Positions 3,078 through 14,591 are shown, counted from the first letter of the stretch. The stretch: DNA of 64,000 bases from an uncultured Alphaproteobacteria bacterium (GCA_944391515.1 CALXTW010000001.1:1378-65377); one strand, 5' to 3'. Numbers and translations are program-made. The notes: generated from the sequence alone by a model not told the origin.

Positions 3078-3494
3078 ATGGAAAACCAATATTACACTCT
3101 GATTGAAAAACAAGATTTTTATGAAATCATTGAAAACAAATTCGGCGAACTGGCAATTTTTATTGATGCCAGAGAAGGCGCTCCGGTTAATCCGGTTCTC
3201 GAATTTGACGGCAAAAAAACCGCTTTGCTCAAAAGAGATGACCGCTTAGCCGTTAAGCTCGACAATATTGATGAAGAAACCAAAGGTCCTTTGGCTGAAG
3301 CTGAGTTTGTGATGATTGTGGAATTACAGGGTAAAATGGTTGAACGCACATACGGTGTTCCGGTTGAAAATGTTGAAGAAATTACCTTTAAGGGCAAACA
3401 AACCCGTGCTGACGAATTGGTTCGTGCCAAGAGCAGAGAAGATGTTATTAACTCTTTTGGCGCCGTTAAAATTTGGTCTTGCGGTGATAAATAG
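3078..3494 (+). CDS. Hypothetical protein (138 aa) co-oriented with the PTS EIIA/HPr genes
   Basis: Intact ORF with an RBS-like context. No recognisable motif. Confidence 0.5.
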   Translation: MENQYYTLIEKQDFYEIIENKFGELAIFIDAREGAPVNPVLEFDGKKTALLKRDDRLAVKLDNIDEETKGPLAEAEFVMIVELQGKMVERTYGVPVENVEEITFKGKQTRADELVRAKSREDVINSFGAVKIWSCGDK

Positions 3495-3507
3495 TTAAGG
3501 AAAAAAT

Positions 3508-3906
3508 ATGATTGGTTTAGTTTTAGTTACCCATGGAAATCTTGCCTTGGAATTTATTTCGGCCATGCAACATGTGGTCGGAAAGCAAGAACAAGTTGAG
3601 GCTGTTTGTATTGGTCCGGAAGACGATATGGAAATGAGAAGAAATGAAATCCTCTCAAAGGCTGAAAGCGTCAATTCCGGCGACGGAACAATTGTTTTAA
3701 CAGATATGTTTGGCGGAACACCTTCTAACTTGGCAATCTCTATTATGGACAGAGCAAAGGTGGAAATCATTGCCGGTATTAACTTGCCGATGCTGATTAA
3801 ACTTGCTTCTTTGCGCAAAGATAAGTCCTTAAAAGAAGCCGTTGAAGGCGCTCAAGATGCCGGCAAAAAATATATTAATGTAGCCTCTAAATTATTGGGA
3901 ATGTAA
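3508..3906 (+). CDS. PTS EIIA component, mannose/fructose family (ManX-like, nitrogen-PTS type)
   Basis: MIGLVLVTHGNLA...EVEAVCIGPED...IVLTDMFGGTPSN is the classic EIIA-Man fold signature with the catalytic His in VTHG. RBS aagga. Confidence 0.8.
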   Translation: MIGLVLVTHGNLALEFISAMQHVVGKQEQVEAVCIGPEDDMEMRRNEILSKAESVNSGDGTIVLTDMFGGTPSNLAISIMDRAKVEIIAGINLPMLIKLASLRKDKSLKEAVEGAQDAGKKYINVASKLLGM

Positions 3907-3909
3907 GTC

Positions 3910-4188
3910 ATGGCTGATGAAACTTTATCCGCAACCTTAGAAATTCAAAACAAAAAAGGTTTACATGCCAGAGCGGCCGCCGCTTTTGTGAAAGCTATTG
4001 AAGATTTGGATGCTGATGTAACCGTGGAGAGAATCGGCCAAACCGTAAGCGGTTGCTCAATTATGGGATTGATGATGTTGGCTGCGGCCAAAGGCACAAC
4101 CATTAAAGTTAACTGCTCGGGAAATCAGGCAAAAGAAGCTCTGGATGCTTTAACATTATTGGTTAACAGTAAGTTCGGCGAAGAATAA
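3910..4188 (+). CDS. ptsH: Phosphocarrier protein HPr (NPr-like)
   Basis: NKKGLHARAAAAFV (His15 motif) and the GxS region GCSIMGLMML. 92 aa. Confidence 0.85.
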   Translation: MADETLSATLEIQNKKGLHARAAAAFVKAIEDLDADVTVERIGQTVSGCSIMGLMMLAAAKGTTIKVNCSGNQAKEALDALTLLVNSKFGEE

Positions 4189-4192
4189 GTCA

Positions 4193-5113
4193 ATGAAAAC
4201 CAAAGCTCCCCGTAATAAAACTTTGGAGCTCAATAGGGCGCAAACTCAAACTTACGCCGCGCAAGCCGTTAAACTCAAAAGACTAGCTAGCCTTCATGAA
4301 GTCCTAAATCAAATTATTTGGCAAGATGCTTTTAAGGCGATTGATTTGTTGCCTGATAATTCAGTGGATTTGATGATTGTTGACCCGCCATATAATCTGA
4401 CTAAAAACTTTGGGAAATCCGTTTTCAAAGAAATGGGGCTGAATTCTTATAAAGAGTGGTTGGATTCTTGGTTATCTAAGACGGTTCGGCTTCTTAAAGA
4501 TAATGCCTCGATTTATATTTGTGCCGACTGGAAAACCTCTATTGCCATACCGGAAGTTGCAGGAAAATATTTTTTGTTGCAAAACCGAATTTCTTGGGAA
4601 AGAGAAAAAGGCAGAGGAGCCTCCAACAACTGGAAAAATTGCTTGGAAGATATTTGGTTCTTCACCAAAGGAAAAGATTATACGTTTAATTTGGATAATG
4701 TTAAAATCCAACGTAAGGTGATTGCTCCTTATCGGGATAAATCCGGTTTGCCAAAAGATTGGGTGCAGAACGATGATGAAAGATACCGTTTAACGGCTCC
4801 TTCAAATATTTGGACAGATATATCAATTCCCTTCTGGTCAATGCCGGAAAACACCCCTCACCCCACACAAAAGCCTGAAAAGCTGATTGCAAAACTTATT
4901 TTGGCCTCAAGCAATGAGGGTGATGTGGTGTTTGACCCGTTTGTCGGCTCGGGAACCACCGCCGTTACCGCAAAAAAACTCAAACGAAACTTTATTGCTA
5001 TTGAGAGAGAAAAAGAATATGTCGCTCTGGCGCTTAAACGCTTGGAATTAGCCGAAGAATTTCCTGAAATTCAGGGTTATGAAAACGGAATCTTTCGCGC
5101 TCGTAACGGATAA
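4193..5113 (+). CDS. Site-specific DNA methyltransferase, N6-adenine/N4-cytosine beta-class (CcrM/HinfI-like, short form)
   Basis: Motif IV DLMIVDPPYNL. AdoMet motif VVFDPFVGSGTT near the C-terminus, i.e. beta-class order. PHPTQKPEKLI is conserved with CcrM/M.HinfI. 306 aa, lacking the CcrM C-terminal extension. Confidence 0.8.
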   Translation: MKTKAPRNKTLELNRAQTQTYAAQAVKLKRLASLHEVLNQIIWQDAFKAIDLLPDNSVDLMIVDPPYNLTKNFGKSVFKEMGLNSYKEWLDSWLSKTVRLLKDNASIYICADWKTSIAIPEVAGKYFLLQNRISWEREKGRGASNNWKNCLEDIWFFTKGKDYTFNLDNVKIQRKVIAPYRDKSGLPKDWVQNDDERYRLTAPSNIWTDISIPFWSMPENTPHPTQKPEKLIAKLILASSNEGDVVFDPFVGSGTTAVTAKKLKRNFIAIEREKEYVALALKRLELAEEFPEIQGYENGIFRARNG

Positions 5114-5212
5114 ATTTAATAATAAGTCTATAAAACCTGTTTTTTCTCACATAACATATTACATCTTCAGAGACCAATTATGGTTCAATCATAACCTTTA
5201 AGGAGAAAAAAC

Positions 5213-5338
5213 ATGTCTTGTAATTGCAATAATAACAATACCAAAACTACTAAATCTGCTTCAAGCAACTCAAATTCTTCTAGCTCTTCTAACTCCACAA
5301 AATCTGCTTCTACAAAAAAAGAAAGTTGCAATAAATAA
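5213..5338 (+). CDS. Small Ser/Asn/Thr-rich peptide (41 aa), MSCNCNNNNTKTTKSASSNSNSSSSSNSTKSASTKKESCNK
   Basis: Not in the ORF track because it is under 60 aa. Strong SD AAGGAG 7 nt upstream of the ATG. A rho-independent terminator follows immediately. Cys residues at both ends. Confidence 0.4.
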   Translation: MSCNCNNNNTKTTKSASSNSNSSSSSNSTKSASTKKESCNK

Positions 5339-5357
5339 GCCTATTCCTTAAATTGAA

Positions 5358-5395
5358 AAATCTCCTCAACTTTTCAGTCGGGGAGATTTTTTTAT
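5358..5395 (+). terminator. Rho-independent terminator after the micro-ORF
   Basis: aaatctcc ... ggagattt hairpin followed by TTTTTTT. Confidence 0.5.
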
Positions 5396-8123: not shown

Positions 8124-8750
8124 ATGCCTAGTATCTTGTTTTTATCTGACAATGAAGGATTTGCCGAAGATTTATGCGGGCAGATTCACCTCTATGCTCC
8201 CGAATTTTCTATTGAAAGAGAAGATGATGATGCGTCCTATGATATTTATATCTTAGATGAAAAGAGAGAGCTTTTGCCTCGTTTGCGAGAAAAACATGTA
8301 AAATCACCAATCGTGTTGCTGGAAAAAAATGTTGACGGTTTAACCGAAAGTGGTGATTTGGTGTTTTTGGTTGAAAAACCTTTCCGTCTCAATGAGTTTT
8401 TGAACAATTTACGCTCTTGTATTAACAAGTTTGAAAACAGCAGTGATGCTTATTTGACATTTAATAACTATGAGCTTCATCCTTTAGCTAAAGAGATTTT
8501 GAACCTGCGCAATAATGAGCTCATCAAACTCACCGAAAAAGAAGTGGCGGTGATTAAATATCTTTACAAAGCAAAAGATAAAATCGTCAGCAAAACCGAT
8601 TTGTTACAAGATGTGTGGGATTATAATGCCGAAGTTTCAACCCATACAATTGAAACGCATATTTACCGCCTCAGACAAAAGGTGGAGCATGATGATGTAG
8701 ATGCTCAACTCATCATTACCGAAAACGGCGGTTATAAGCTCAAATTCTAG
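8124..8750 (+). CDS. OmpR-family winged-helix regulator with an atypical receiver domain (orphan response regulator)
   Basis: C-terminal Trans_reg_C pattern LTEKEVAVIKYL...SKTDLLQDVWDYN...THTIETHIYRLRQKV...GGYKL. N-terminal receiver-like region with YILDEK and KPF, but SDNE replaces the acidic DD pair. No kinase adjacent. Confidence 0.65.
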   Translation: MPSILFLSDNEGFAEDLCGQIHLYAPEFSIEREDDDASYDIYILDEKRELLPRLREKHVKSPIVLLEKNVDGLTESGDLVFLVEKPFRLNEFLNNLRSCINKFENSSDAYLTFNNYELHPLAKEILNLRNNELIKLTEKEVAVIKYLYKAKDKIVSKTDLLQDVWDYNAEVSTHTIETHIYRLRQKVEHDDVDAQLIITENGGYKLKF

Positions 8751-10042
8751 CTTCTGCCTCTTCCTCGAGGCAAGTTATTTGGGCGTGTTTGACGACCTCT
8801 GGGATTGGTCGGACGGTTGTTTCCTTGATTAGAATTTTGTGGGCCAAGAGCTCTTTGTAAACGCGTTTTGGTTTTGGCGTCTAAGTTTTGCAAAAATTCT
8901 TTAGAAATATGCGGAGCTCCCTTGGTTTTGACCCGCGGAGAAGATTCCAAACAAGCAATCAGTAAACGAGCTTTGAACTCATCATCTTCTATATTGGCAA
9001 ATTCTATCTGACAATTATCCTTAACAGCTTTGGCGACAATATTACTAAAGTCCTTAATTGACGGAATATCATCTTCACCGTTGGCATTTTGCGCACCTAG
9101 AGAGAGGTTATATTCGTTATTGGCCTCAATATTGAGTTTTGAACCATCGGCATGAGTAATGTCGGCAACAAAGTTCTTGTTATCAAGGTCTTCATTATAG
9201 GTTGCATTCTCTCTAGCAGCCACGGCTTTAAGGTGCTGACGCCAACCGTCCTTCCAATTATCGTTATTATGCGGCAAAACAGGCAGGTTGTTTTGGTGTG
9301 AAATGGTAACCGCTTTGACCAAGCCCGGCATATTTTCCAAAGTTTCACGCATGGAGGCAATACATTCATCACAAAAAGGTGGCTGCCCCCTTTGCTTGCG
9401 GTCTAATCGCTCCTGAGTTAGTCCGATAAAGCCGCTTTCTCCCATGATACATTTGTTATTGGTGCAGTGGACACCTAAATCAGGATCTTCTTTAATATGC
9501 GAACGAGTGGCGTGAGTAGCGTTCAGAATGTGTCCGAATTCGTGAATAAAAATGGTGATAAACAATTCTTTATCGGTGCAATTTTCAAGCGAGAGGACAG
9601 AATTGAGTTTTTCTATGCCATAGCCGTAAAATTTCGGTTCTATGGTTTGGTTAAGCAAAGTTACAACCAAATCCTGCGAATTTTCACGCACCATCTTTTC
9701 GGCCTTGAGGCGGGCATAGTGCTCCATATCCACCGCGTTAATTCCTTTGGCTTTATTTTGCTCTGAAGCCACAGCCAAAAACCAAGCCTCTGAGGCATAA
9801 GGAACCAAATATCTGCCATTGGGAAGTTTAAAATATTTTGATTTTAATTCATCATTAGGCAGCGCCGTATATTCAGCAACCGAAATTTCACTCTTGTTTT
9901 TGGGGTGACAATCATCAAACTCAATTTGGAAAGACGATTTATATTCCGGAAACATAGATAACATCTCTTGGGCGGCTTCTTTTGCCCAAATTTTATAATG
10001 TGGCGGAGTTCCTGCCGGTGTTTCCAAAATCAGCTTTTTCAT
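8747..10042 (-). CDS. Archaemetzincin-like zinc metalloprotease (HExxH + CX4CXM + CXXC) with a C-terminal Arg/Gly/Asn-rich disordered tail
   Basis: FIHEFGHILN...LGVHCTNNKCIMG...FCDECIAS reproduces the AMZ HExxH...HCx4CxM...CxxC zinc-site architecture. The tail is GPQNSNQGNNRPTNPRGRQTRPNNLPRGRGRS. The start is adjacent to the stop of the upstream 634-aa ORF. Confidence 0.6.
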   Translation of the reverse strand: MKKLILETPAGTPPHYKIWAKEAAQEMLSMFPEYKSSFQIEFDDCHPKNKSEISVAEYTALPNDELKSKYFKLPNGRYLVPYASEAWFLAVASEQNKAKGINAVDMEHYARLKAEKMVRENSQDLVVTLLNQTIEPKFYGYGIEKLNSVLSLENCTDKELFITIFIHEFGHILNATHATRSHIKEDPDLGVHCTNNKCIMGESGFIGLTQERLDRKQRGQPPFCDECIASMRETLENMPGLVKAVTISHQNNLPVLPHNNDNWKDGWRQHLKAVAARENATYNEDLDNKNFVADITHADGSKLNIEANNEYNLSLGAQNANGEDDIPSIKDFSNIVAKAVKDNCQIEFANIEDDEFKARLLIACLESSPRVKTKGAPHISKEFLQNLDAKTKTRLQRALGPQNSNQGNNRPTNPRGRQTRPNNLPRGRGRS

Positions 10043-10044
10043 GA

Positions 10045-11949
10045 TTATTTCCCCTTTCCTCCGGCTTTGAAGAGTTTGAGTAAGGTTTTCTCTATCGGAC
10101 GCTCTACCGTATAAAGATGTTTTAGATCTTCGGCATGTCTTTCACCCATACGGGTTGATGGCTTTTTGAAATCATTTAGCTTAAACATTTCACTTATTAA
10201 ATTACCTGAAACCATTCGACGGCGACGTTGGTCATACATATTAGCTAAGCGTTCTTCGGCAAGAGCTTGCTCTTCGGAAGACAAATTTTTATTTTTTTTG
10301 CGCAAAATAGATGTGGCTCTTTGTTGCTCCTCTTTTGAGTGAGCAAAGAGTTTGAAAATATTGTTTCTTTGGCGTTTGAGCAAAATATTGTGCGCGTCAA
10401 AAAAGTATGATTGCTCGGGAATATGACTGAAATAGGCCTCAAAACCTTTTAGGTTAAACTTTTCTTCCGTTGAATTGGTGAGCTCGGCAAATAAAGCTAC
10501 TTGCTTAAACCAATCGGATTTGTAGTCGCCACATTGATATTCAAAATCACGATTTTTGAGAATATTGGCATTTTTTTGGTCGCACCAATGCAATAAATCA
10601 ACCATTTGCGGAGAAATACCAACTTTCTGAGATTCTATATTTTGAATGATTTTATGATTTAGCAATCTTAAAAAGACGCCATATTGCTTGGTATTGGTAT
10701 AGCCTTCCAGCATAAAATCTTGAGAAAGTGTATCTAAGCTCAAATCGCCGGTGAGGGGCGGACGCGTATTTTCTTTTTCCATATTCGCGGCAATAATTTC
10801 TAAGGTTTGTGCCGCGGTTTGATTAGTGCCTTGATCAACAATTTGTTCATAACGGCTTATGTCTAAGTAAGATGGCAAAAATTCATCATTACCAAAGTTT
10901 TTCAAGTCAGTTTTGATGTGTTCGGCTGCTTGAGTTTTGGCTTTTTCATCCGAAGAAAGATGGGAATGGTAGTAATCCAACATATGGTTTACAAGTTCCT
11001 CGGTTCCGATGTTTTCACTATGAATAAAATCTCGTAAACCGCTAAAATCAGCATTTTCTAGAGCAATCGCTTGAGTTCTGATGGTTTCTCTTTTTTGCAT
11101 ATCCGGAGTGGGAACTTCTTTTAATACGCCTAAAGCTTTGTTTAAGGCTAAAGGCGTCCAACGGCTGGTTTGCAGAAGGATATTATATCCCATCAGACCA
11201 TATTCGCCAAATTCACAATCATGCTCCCCAACTAAGGTTTGGAAGTTTTCATTCTTATTGGCAAAAGGCACGACATTTTTAACAAAACCTTGCGCCATTA
11301 CATCATCTATTTTGCCCTCATTTTGATAGGCATTGTCTATCTCTTCGCCAAATTTTACAATATCTCGTGGATTTTTTAATTTCGGTAGGGCTTGGGTGAG
11401 AATTTTGAGTTTGTTAAAATAACTCTTGGAATCTCCTTCATAAAGCGAGCTAAAAGCCGACATAGATAACGGAAACTTATCGCGAACACTTAAACCATTA
11501 TCAGGATTAGTAATGGTTTCTGCTGCTTTTAACATTACATTTTGAAGTTTTTTGTCATTAATCTTATCGGGTGTATAGGTCAGCATGGCTTTGGCTGACT
11601 GAGCAAAAATGTTACGATACAGTGCCTCTTCACTCTCACTTGAGGCTGAGGGCATAATTTTATCGGCAAATCGTTCAGAATAAATTTTCAGGCTTTGTAA
11701 TACATCCAACGGAAGCTCATTTAAGTGTCTGAAACCTTGGTTCCAGTTTTTGCTTACGGCGCCTTCTTGTTTTTCTGGATTAAAATACCCCATATCTCCT
11801 AAATTGTATGCCATTTCAGCCATAATTTTGGCTGATTGCGCCGCATCTTTGGCGCTAATCTCTGGGTGGAGCTGTTTGATTTCGGCAATTGCATTTTTGG
11901 CAGGTGCCGTGCGGATAAAAGCGCTGTATAATTCGTCAAAATCGCTCAT
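10045..11949 (-). CDS. Large hypothetical protein (634 aa), first gene of an operon with the AMZ-like protease
   Basis: Long uninterrupted ORF with a Lys-rich C-terminus. No recognisable catalytic motif. The stop at 10045 is 2 nt before the start of the next gene. Confidence 0.55.
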   Translation of the reverse strand: MSDFDELYSAFIRTAPAKNAIAEIKQLHPEISAKDAAQSAKIMAEMAYNLGDMGYFNPEKQEGAVSKNWNQGFRHLNELPLDVLQSLKIYSERFADKIMPSASSESEEALYRNIFAQSAKAMLTYTPDKINDKKLQNVMLKAAETITNPDNGLSVRDKFPLSMSAFSSLYEGDSKSYFNKLKILTQALPKLKNPRDIVKFGEEIDNAYQNEGKIDDVMAQGFVKNVVPFANKNENFQTLVGEHDCEFGEYGLMGYNILLQTSRWTPLALNKALGVLKEVPTPDMQKRETIRTQAIALENADFSGLRDFIHSENIGTEELVNHMLDYYHSHLSSDEKAKTQAAEHIKTDLKNFGNDEFLPSYLDISRYEQIVDQGTNQTAAQTLEIIAANMEKENTRPPLTGDLSLDTLSQDFMLEGYTNTKQYGVFLRLLNHKIIQNIESQKVGISPQMVDLLHWCDQKNANILKNRDFEYQCGDYKSDWFKQVALFAELTNSTEEKFNLKGFEAYFSHIPEQSYFFDAHNILLKRQRNNIFKLFAHSKEEQQRATSILRKKNKNLSSEEQALAEERLANMYDQRRRRMVSGNLISEMFKLNDFKKPSTRMGERHAEDLKHLYTVERPIEKTLLKLFKAGGKGK

Positions 11950-12110
11950 GGGTTCTTCCTTAAAACTTACTAGCTTGAGTGTAGCATAAGTGGAAAATTT
12001 TGTCTAGAACCAAAATGGTTAAAAAATCGTTGCAAAAGATGCAAAAAAATCCTTTGAACCGTTGATATCTTTAATTTATCGCTTGGTAAAATTTTGGGTT
12101 TGGTGTATAG

Positions 12111-14591
<2,481 letters not shown>

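Follow-up and report, generated by a model that had tools for sequence, protein, structure and literature searches.

A metzincin-like gene with an archaemetzincin-type zinc signature lies back-to-back with gyrB in uncultured gut Alphaproteobacteria

We analyzed a two-gene operon in a 64,000-nucleotide stretch of DNA from an uncultured Alphaproteobacteria bacterium (GCA_944391515.1 CALXTW010000001.1:1378-65377), which is referred to throughout as the window. Both genes were taken from a six-frame list of open reading frames (ORFs) and lie on the minus strand. The downstream gene (8747..10042, the protease gene) encodes an archaemetzincin-like (AMZ-like) metzincin of 431 amino acids (aa), consisting of a catalytic head, a C-terminal domain (CTD) and a basic tail. 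The upstream gene (10045..11949, the partner gene) encodes an all-helical 634-aa protein, a divergent member of a broad uncharacterised family. Their divergent neighbour is gyrB (12150..14591, plus strand; 813 aa), which has the full Pfam set. The best overall explanation, to which we assign a probability of approximately 0.5, is that the operon encodes a lineage-specific cytoplasmic zinc protease that is targeted by its CTD and tail and is transcribed back-to-back with gyrB. We are confident in the structural and genomic description of the locus. The chances that the protein is an active cytoplasmic protease appear to be even, and targeting to nucleic acid or the nucleoid is doubtful. The protease family is chromosomally fixed and restricted to uncultured gut and rumen Alphaproteobacteria, represented by metagenome-assembled genomes (MAGs) of the Ca. 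Scatocola and 'Azospirillum sp.' types.

The catalytic metzincin domain spans aa 1-240 (9323..10042, minus strand) and lacks a signal peptide. The translation contains FIHEFGHIL, LGVHCTNNKCIM (H192 C193 ... C198 I M200) and CDEC. The database search returned 36 homologues, all from metagenomes or MAGs, and an alignment of 29 sequences reached down to 31% identity. H167, E168, G170, H171, H192, C193, C198, C224 and C227 were invariant in this alignment, and M200 was nearly so (at least 90% conserved). HEFGH (9530..9544, minus strand), which lies in a helix of the structural model (residues 158-172), would provide two ligands of the catalytic zinc, H167 and H171, and the general base, E168. The third ligand is probably H192 in HCTNNKCIM (9443..9469, minus strand), a motif that, judging from the alignment and the published signature, would also supply the Met-turn (M200) and the first two cysteines of a four-cysteine (Cys4) structural-zinc site (C193 and C198). 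CDEC (9362..9373, minus strand; C224 and C227) would complete this site and falls within the partial NCBIfam archmetzin match at aa 192-228.

In cytosolic AMZs, the four cysteines of the published archaemetzincin motif, HEXXHXXGXXHCX4CXMX17CXXC, make up a structural zinc site (PMC3427221). The window protease reads HExxH-x20-HCx4CxM-x23-CxxC, which corresponds to a 15-aa insertion ahead of the HC histidine. H192 thus lies 21 residues beyond H171, and the +3 position is Asn instead of Gly, so that the contiguous HEXXHXXGXXH is absent. The length of the insertion varies among relatives (7 aa in the distant homologue at locus L041; relatives' loci are designated by L numbers). H177, at the canonical +6 position of metzincins, is not invariant; some members carry S, Y or R there instead. 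An earlier note on this DNA described two ORFs, the HExxH, HCx4CxM and CxxC motifs, an insertion of approximately 15 aa after HExxH and an RG-rich disordered tail; all of the motifs and both ORFs are present where it placed them, and comparison with the published motif bears out the insertion.

The same note assigned the protein to the archaemetzincins (M54). The zinc-site layout supports this assignment and distant relatives bridge to M54; however, the window protein falls under all curated thresholds. It did not match Pfam PF07998 (M54) at E<=1 (gathering cut-off, 24.4), and none of the 29 aligned members matched M54 at E<=0.1. Its best Pfam match was Reprolysin_5 (16.5 bits versus a cut-off of 27), and sub-threshold matches to Reprolysin_5/_2 were found in 19/29 family members (best E 1e-4). 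The NCBIfam model archmetzin (NF033823) scored 15.9 bits (E 0.009; cut-off 145) over aa 192-228 only. Among the relatives, the 769-aa protein at L041 scored 27.5 bits against PF07998, above the cut-off of 24.4. This protein (E 6.7e-7) and a 286-aa head-only paralogue at L046 (E 1.9e-7) matched archmetzin, albeit at only 29-31 bits. The alignment of the L041 protein with 3lmc reads HEIGHxF-[7-aa insert]-GxHCx4CxM...FCxxC. An AlphaFold2 model built on the 29-sequence alignment had a mean predicted local distance difference test score (pLDDT) of 90.5 and a predicted template modelling score of 0.84, with disorder only at residues 402-431. When this model was searched with Foldseek, ADAM8, atrolysin and TACE ranked first (E 5e-5), and the structure searches differed as to which family is nearest. 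Sequence comparison leads us to conclude that the head probably belongs to the archaemetzincin/adamalysin branch of the metzincins, bears the zinc signature of archaemetzincins and, by curated thresholds, is not a formal M54 member. It appears to keep every archaemetzincin zinc ligand and presumably works like an archaemetzincin. Stand-alone AMZ-like proteins of approximately 286 aa, without a CTD and away from gyrB, were also found in MAGs of related Alphaproteobacteria (L046:7989-8849, L047-L051 and L057), including a tandem pair (L044:8001-9622), and may represent the ancestral form of the head.

The partner and protease genes are tightly coupled, as previously claimed. The junction region (10043..10062, minus strand), identified from the sequence and a terminator scan, reads TAA (partner stop, 10047-10045), a 2-nt TC gap and the protease ATG (10042-10040). 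A Shine-Dalgarno-like purine run, GGAGG/AAGGGG (10051-10062), lies within the 3' end of the partner gene, 9-20 nt before this ATG, and the scan found no terminator-like site between the two genes on the minus strand. In three relatives (L001, L017 and L018), the genes overlap by 4 nt (ATGA), and tight coupling through a 2-nt gap, a 4-nt overlap or a small gap is kept in all subclade relatives (L001-L004 and L014-L019). In comparisons with close relatives, the ratio of nonsynonymous to synonymous substitution rates (dN/dS) was 0.038 for the protease gene, 0.08-0.10 for the partner gene and 0.02 for gyrB. Since the first two values are low, both ORFs are real genes under purifying selection. The sequence evidence indicates that partner and protease form a bicistronic operon that is genuine and conserved within the window's subclade. 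The operon is arranged divergently from gyrB across a 200-bp spacer, in agreement with the earlier description. At its other end, the protease gene overlaps by 4 nt (8747-8750) with the 3' end of a convergent OmpR-type response-regulator gene (8124-8750, plus strand). A terminator-like hairpin for the plus strand (8755-8772) falls within the tail-coding region.

Contigs were fetched for homologues of falling identity, and a one-genome-per-species scan yielded 44 loci. All 44 species-level loci belong to gut, caecal or rumen alphaproteobacterial MAGs, such as Candidatus Scatocola (Rhodospirillales) and 'uncultured Azospirillum sp.'. The CTD-bearing gene was immediately divergent from gyrB in 32/34 assessable loci, at a distance of 170-450 bp; this arrangement held for 27/28 loci with a full-length homologue and for 5/6 assessable CTD-only loci. 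The flanks fell into at least three arrangements: RR-porin-gyrB<->protease-polA-PBP1, DJ-1-gyrB<->protease-CvpA-RadA and, in the window's subclade, polA-(HTH)-gyrB<->partner-protease-RR-porin (RR, response regulator; HTH, helix-turn-helix). Since adjacency holds while the flanks differ, the protease-gyrB pair appears to move as a unit through rearrangements. Across loci, gyrB identity was 78-99% and protease identity was 26-98%; in the flank comparison, the protease dropped to 26-35%, below polA (58-69%) and even the porin (42-51%).

The 200-bp spacer contains two predicted promoters arranged back-to-back, both found in a promoter scan. The operon promoter (11978..12006, minus strand) is a conserved sigma-70-type promoter composed of TAGACA(AAA), a 17-nt spacer and TG-TACACT; the likely gyrB promoter (12083..12111, plus strand) is composed of TTGGTA, a 17-nt spacer and TATAGT, and its GCTTGGT element is conserved across loci. 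T[AG]GACAAA sits 51-106 bp upstream of the gyrB-divergent gene in 20/27 loci and in all lineages, at a density of 4.0 per kb versus 0.029 per kb of strand elsewhere in those loci (approximately 140-fold), and the operon promoter carries the sole TAGACAAAA of the 64-kb window. In the spacers of L026, L027, L042 and L045, T[AG]GACAAA(A), whose window copy is at 11998-12006 (minus strand), is doubled 14-17 bp apart and in sequence resembles a repeated operator more closely than it does a simple -35 box. The dedicated operon promoter would transcribe the partner and then the protease. Since the subclade promoter precedes the partner gene and not the protease gene, we consider the partner to have been inserted between an ancestral promoter and the protease gene. 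The divergent promoter pair may couple protease expression to that of gyrB. The OmpR-type response-regulator gene that overlaps the protease gene in the window accompanies the locus in many arrangements. The spacers of many relatives contain DnaA-box-like sequences between the two divergent promoters, either TGTGCATAA (L007, L035, L036, L039 and L041) or TGTGGACAA (L005, L010, L012, L020, L021, L024 and L025), which are exact or one-mismatch matches to TGTGNATAA, the complement of TTATNCACA. The window's own spacer had no obvious DnaA-box-like sequence.

The fixed pairing raises the question of whether gyrase itself is the target. A protease directed at gyrase or DNA might clear trapped gyrase-DNA or other DNA-protein adducts, in the manner of eukaryotic Wss1/SPRTN, or regulate gyrase, which would explain the gyrB pairing. 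The survival of this pairing through at least three rearrangement classes, the back-to-back promoters, the DnaA-box-like sites in the spacers of several loci and the joining of a metalloprotease to a basic disordered tail are all consistent with such a role. However, the CTD is acidic, the head is swapped for non-protease domains in some species, and adjacency is the sole link to gyrase. We give this proposal little credence, and any functional tie between the protease and gyrase is one that we infer from position.

The earlier note placed the pair in an accessory block that interrupts the recF-gyrB linkage, which implies insertion of a mobile module (a toxin-antitoxin system, a defence system or an island) beside gyrB. 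The gene order does break the dnaN-recF...gyrB neighbourhood, and the genes in between include one for a DNA methyltransferase. However, the block from recF to gyrB (EIIA-Man, HPr/NPr, an N6/N4 methyltransferase, LolA, an Xth-like nuclease, a porin and a response regulator) consists of ordinary chromosomal genes with the same G+C as the flanks (0.38-0.42). These genes also occur in relatives, in which the intervening PTS-Ntr-type, LolA, Xth-like, porin and response-regulator genes are conserved. PADLOC gave no defence matches, plasmid collections gave no match, and the phage collection gave no match for the protease; repeats, an integrase and a tRNA were not noted in the ORF lists. The protease occupies the same place in approximately 40 species and is a fixed gyrB neighbour. 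Insertion of a mobile module is therefore very improbable and already largely refuted, and the notion of an accessory block is unsupported.

Our preferred explanation, a cytoplasmic protease with its own targeting elements, also depends on the region behind the head. The presence of approximately 200 extra residues and a disordered tail had been claimed, and the AlphaFold2 model confirms both. The alpha/beta CTD (aa ~256-400, ~150 aa; 8843..9277, minus strand; pLDDT >90) is the constant module of the gyrB-divergent genes in this lineage. Searches of Pfam, NCBIfam and PDB sequences gave no match to it, nor did Foldseek return a significant structural analogue. The disordered tail (aa 401-431; 8750..8842, minus strand; pLDDT <50 for residues 402-431) is rich in Q, N, P, G and R and ends in RGRGRS; the C-terminal end reads ...NQGNNRPTNPRGRQTRPNNLPRGRGRS, also given as ...NPRGRQTRPNNLPRGRGRS. 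The tail has an isoelectric point (pI) of 12 and a net charge of +7, and the head (pI 5.8) and CTD (pI 5.6) are both acidic. PRGRQ and PRGRGR in the tail resemble AT-hook cores. Target choice would be made by the lineage-specific CTD together with the tail, and the tail would most plausibly bind nucleic acid, thereby bringing the protease to nucleoid- or RNA-associated substrates.

No signal peptide or transmembrane segment was found in the protease, and neither the protease nor the partner contains a hydrophobic segment (maximum 19-residue Kyte-Doolittle means of 1.0 and 0.57). The N-terminus of the protease is a buried strand of the fold in the AlphaFold2 model. These two features argue that there is no Sec signal, and the protease is most likely cytoplasmic because an export signal is lacking. 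The possibility that the CTD arose by duplication of half the metzincin head was considered and rejected, since weak hmmsearch matches (independent E-values, 0.02-0.5) were unconfirmed by hhalign (probability 0.2%). A CTD search of a word-indexed protein database gave 11 matches, mostly fragments, and was uninformative on distribution.

The gyrB-divergent ORFs of the relatives vary in length from 408 to 1165 aa and in architecture. A hidden Markov model (HMM) of the CTD matched all of them (E 1e-36 to 1e-80; 25 proteins of differing architecture), and the AMZ-like head was missing from three. In one of these (L053:3067-6465, 1132 aa), a Ppx/GppA-type (exopolyphosphatase-like) domain at aa 316-547 replaces the metzincin head and is followed by the CTD and a further module, EXT-A; in L055 and L056, the N-terminal region is unrelated to the AMZ-like head. 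In L042 and L045, an insert of 400-700 aa separates head from CTD. EXT-A is a C-terminal extension of approximately 340 aa that is present in eight proteins (L027:9159-10241, L020, L030, L036, L041, L045, L053 and L055) with 44-64% mutual identity and the motifs WKLHLDVVPNR...GGENGKGMTIYVG...YTDQ...EAYCAHK. It may be a new enzymatic domain. Pfam, NCBIfam and PDB searches gave no match to EXT-A except for sub-threshold similarity to RamC_N, the N-terminal domain of RamC, in 4/8 members (best E 0.0013). Assignment as an OspF/RamC-type lyase was not adopted because the RamC_N matches were sub-threshold and no PDB sequence match was found; we leave it as a lead. Another C-terminal extension of approximately 320 aa occurs in P0034 (L007:9234-10199; aa ~412-732), P0035 and P0036. 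In P0034, GHNIALILE...LDQLGSS...RMDCATV resembles by eye the His/Asp/Cys triad of a cysteine protease (CE-clan or YopJ-like), and Pfam, NCBIfam and PADLOC returned nothing for this protein. Nearly all gyrB-divergent proteins end in a net-basic, Q/N/P/G-rich segment, often ...GR, ...GGRS or ...NTR, regardless of the last domain. Heads and extensions thus vary at the locus, whereas the CTD, the basic C-terminus and gyrB adjacency stay constant.

This modularity is compatible with two further explanations. The CTD and the basic tail ending ...GR(S) may constitute a dedicated targeting or export module with swappable cargo (the AMZ-like protease, the Ppx/GppA-like domain, EXT-A with its faint phospho-lyase similarity and the ~320-aa His/Asp/Cys extension). 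Such a modular system, which would be hitherto undescribed, could be either a new class of host- or competitor-directed effectors or a gyrase/nucleoid-directed protein-processing machine, and even jointly we regard these two forms as improbable.

The other explanation is that the protease itself is a translocated effector. It would be exported independently of Sec, for example by a type IV system that reads the positive C-terminus; the CTD and tail would form a bipartite delivery signal that takes swappable enzymatic heads into cells of the host or of competitors, and the partner would act as a chaperone or co-effector. The lineage is host-associated, the long-term divergence of the protease is far above that of neighbouring genes, and the architecture is modular: the head can be exchanged, as for the Ppx/GppA-like one of L053, and domains can be added, as with EXT-A, whose similarity to RamC_N is weak. 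Most members keep a basic Q/N/P/G-rich tail (...GR(S) or ...NTR) whatever the last domain, and weak TrbC/VirB2-like proteins adjoin the gene in L010. However, the VirB2 matches are sub-threshold, and the gene is single-copy in a fixed core-genome position in nearly every species, with no island. No recognisable secretion, chaperone or immunity genes were found in the window or its flanks, and no plasmid or phage relatives of the protease were detected. The protease is under strong purifying selection, has a Cys4 zinc site of the cytoplasmic type and lacks a signal peptide, and the partner family is widespread among housekeeping genes. We consider export as an effector unlikely, and the secreted-effector interpretation of the earlier note has no direct support.

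Several observations weigh against a targeted cytoplasmic protease beside gyrB. At the level of classification, the window protease lies below the M54 and archmetzin thresholds, and no archaemetzincin was among the best 50 Foldseek matches listed, which were led by ADAMs/adamalysins. H177 is present in most members and could, from its position in the sequence, serve as the third zinc ligand in those. Regarding targeting, both globular domains are acidic, and nucleic-acid binding would therefore have to be achieved by the tail without their help; the tail is poorly conserved apart from its basic character. A basic C-terminus that is kept behind different last domains is also expected of a C-terminal secretion signal. 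As for gyrB, a full-length homologue with 32% identity (L033:8001-9173) and a CTD-only protein (L052:8001-8411), the two exceptions to the divergent arrangement, have no gyrB within 8 kb and could be paralogues or relocated copies, and the linkage could also be inherited synteny without functional meaning. Regarding activity, the characterised archaeal AMZs were inactive against many substrates and have occluded active sites (PMC3427221), and CarG of Myxococcus, which alone among bacterial AMZ homologues has an assigned role, is non-proteolytic (PMC8156234).

These last points raise the possibility that the protein is a non-catalytic, zinc-bound regulator like CarG. Its metzincin fold would then be an interaction scaffold in transcription, and its tail would replace the AT-hook partner CarD. 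CarG works with CarD, an RGRP AT-hook protein, and the AT-hook-core-like PRGRQ and PRGRGR of the window tail fit this proposal, as does the in vitro inactivity of archaeal AMZs. However, CarG has HQxxH, whereas here the catalytic Glu, the three His and the Met-turn are invariant in at least 29 sequences, to approximately 30% identity, which argues for retained catalysis. In addition, conservation of the RGR motifs does not extend beyond the closest relatives. A CarG-like regulator is accordingly a poor prospect, and we continue to favour a protease that may be active in the cytoplasm.

The 634-aa partner was previously described as an orphan. However, an exhaustive HMMER search retrieved 211 cluster representatives below an E-value of 1e-3, of which 176 also fell below 1e-10, and the partner therefore belongs to a family of at least 211 clusters. 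Its members are mostly 600-700 aa long and share a conserved core at aa ~200-545 of the window protein. The window partner keeps 26/30 of the family positions that are at least 85% conserved and has Q293 and I385 in place of an invariant Asp and a conserved Arg, respectively. At the 51 loci examined, which were drawn from gut and environmental metagenomes, the family members had neither an AMZ-like or CTD gene nearby nor a conserved neighbour, except for the latter in one group of closely related gut contigs; the flanks contain housekeeping genes, such as FtsZ, Fpg, holA, EF-G and UvrD. Shared flanking genes gave no informative overlap on the taxonomic origin of the wider family.

Only in the window's subclade, where protease identity is at least 66%, does the partner adjoin the protease. 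When the partner HMM was searched against six-frame ORFs of 57 loci, it matched only the subclade orthologues, and the partner was absent beside approximately 30 more distant protease homologues. A relationship of the partner to the L042/L045 insert, the L053/L055 heads, the extensions or u1194 was rejected on the same result. The two families thus do not co-occur outside the window's subclade, and the distribution of sequences indicates a recent, lineage-specific association and not a co-evolving system. The partner may have been recruited to the transcription unit in this subclade as an adaptor, a regulator or a substrate, or may be a mere co-expressed passenger. The sole match of the partner in the phage collection was MT836925.1 ('Bacteriophage sp.', 8263 bp, human faeces) at 4042-5358, where the alignment covers 68% of the query at 24.8% identity (E 7e-24); this entry carries no annotation and could be a bacterial contig assigned to phage in error.

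Other features of the neighbourhood were also noted. From recF to LolA, window positions 3078-5113 encode on one strand a 138-aa ORF with no Pfam match, EIIA-Man, HPr/NPr and a 306-aa N6/N4 DNA methyltransferase, in an order that is kept in L001 and L012. Directly downstream of the protease in one lineage are genes for a 103-aa protein (L010:9649-9960) and a 1194-aa Cys-rich coiled-coil protein (L010:10010-13594), which share a transmembrane-hairpin segment with weak similarity to TrbC/VirB2 pilins (E 0.012 and 0.0011, respectively). Homologues of the 103-aa protein lie near gyrB in L021, L023 and L024. An Rfam search gave no RNA element match.

Archaemetzincins are conserved from archaea to humans, yet none has a known physiological substrate. 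A bacterial relative with fully conserved catalytic residues, a putative dedicated targeting domain, and an unusually stable genomic partner (gyrB) and promoter is therefore useful, and this locus is one of few genomic handles on the role of archaemetzincin-type enzymes. It provides testable leads in DNA or nucleoid association, the relationship with gyrase, and tail-dependent targeting or export. If the gyrase/nucleoid-directed proposal is true, it would give these enzymes their first physiological substrate class. The present analysis also defines uncharacterised families in common uncultured gut Alphaproteobacteria, namely, the CTD, EXT-A and the 600-700-aa helical partner family, and corrects the first reading of the locus: the partner is no orphan, and the locus is not an accessory effector island.

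Among known systems, the archaemetzincins (MEROPS M54; AmzA structures 2X7M of Methanopyrus kandleri, 3ZVS of Archaeoglobus fulgidus and 3LMC of Methanocorpusculum; human AMZ1/AMZ2) have the seven zinc-site residues and the Met-turn in common with the window protease. They likewise lack a signal peptide, and relatives in the window family match Pfam M54 or NCBIfam archmetzin significantly. The window protease differs in its 15-aa insertion of variable length, the replacement of Gly by Asn at +3 and the spacing of x23 instead of x17 before CxxC. It also carries two additional parts, the 150-aa CTD and the basic tail, occurs in gut Alphaproteobacteria only and keeps a fixed position next to gyrB. 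The adamalysins/reprolysins (M12B: snake-venom metalloproteinases, ADAM8/ADAM17 and fragilysin) share the C-I-M context of the Met-turn. However, they are secreted with pro-domains, have HExxHxxGxxHD and carry disulfides where the window protease has the AMZ-type Cys4 site. No window-family member reaches the Pfam cut-offs for adamalysins, and a signal peptide and a contiguous GxxHD are absent.

CarG of Myxococcus xanthus, which acts with the HMGA-type AT-hook protein CarD, resembles the window protease in that a bacterial AMZ-type His/Cys two-zinc motif is tied to a basic DNA-binding element. The RGR-containing basic tail of the window protease sits on the same polypeptide as the zinc motif, unlike in CarG/CarD, and no CarD-like gene was seen at the window locus. 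The CarG motif is HQx2Hx2Ex2HCx4CxMx16Cx2C, in which Gln replaces the catalytic Glu (PMC8156234), whereas Glu168 is invariant in the window family. CarG is restricted to myxobacteria, is not a protease and has no CTD.

In alphaproteobacterial effectors, the BID domain and positive tail of Bartonella Bep proteins and the Arg-rich C-termini in Agrobacterium serve as type IV secretion signals. These effectors and the window protease are alike in having an enzymatic head, a conserved domain and a short, positive, disordered C-terminus. However, the CTD of the window protease is alpha/beta with no detected similarity to BID, no type IV secretion system genes were found nearby, and the protease gene holds a fixed core-genome position beside gyrB. 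The catalytic domain represents a divergent form of a known type. The CTD, EXT-A and the helical partner family had no match above threshold to a curated family or solved structure, and these modules, together with the near-universal gyrB-divergent placement with swappable heads, appear to be undescribed.

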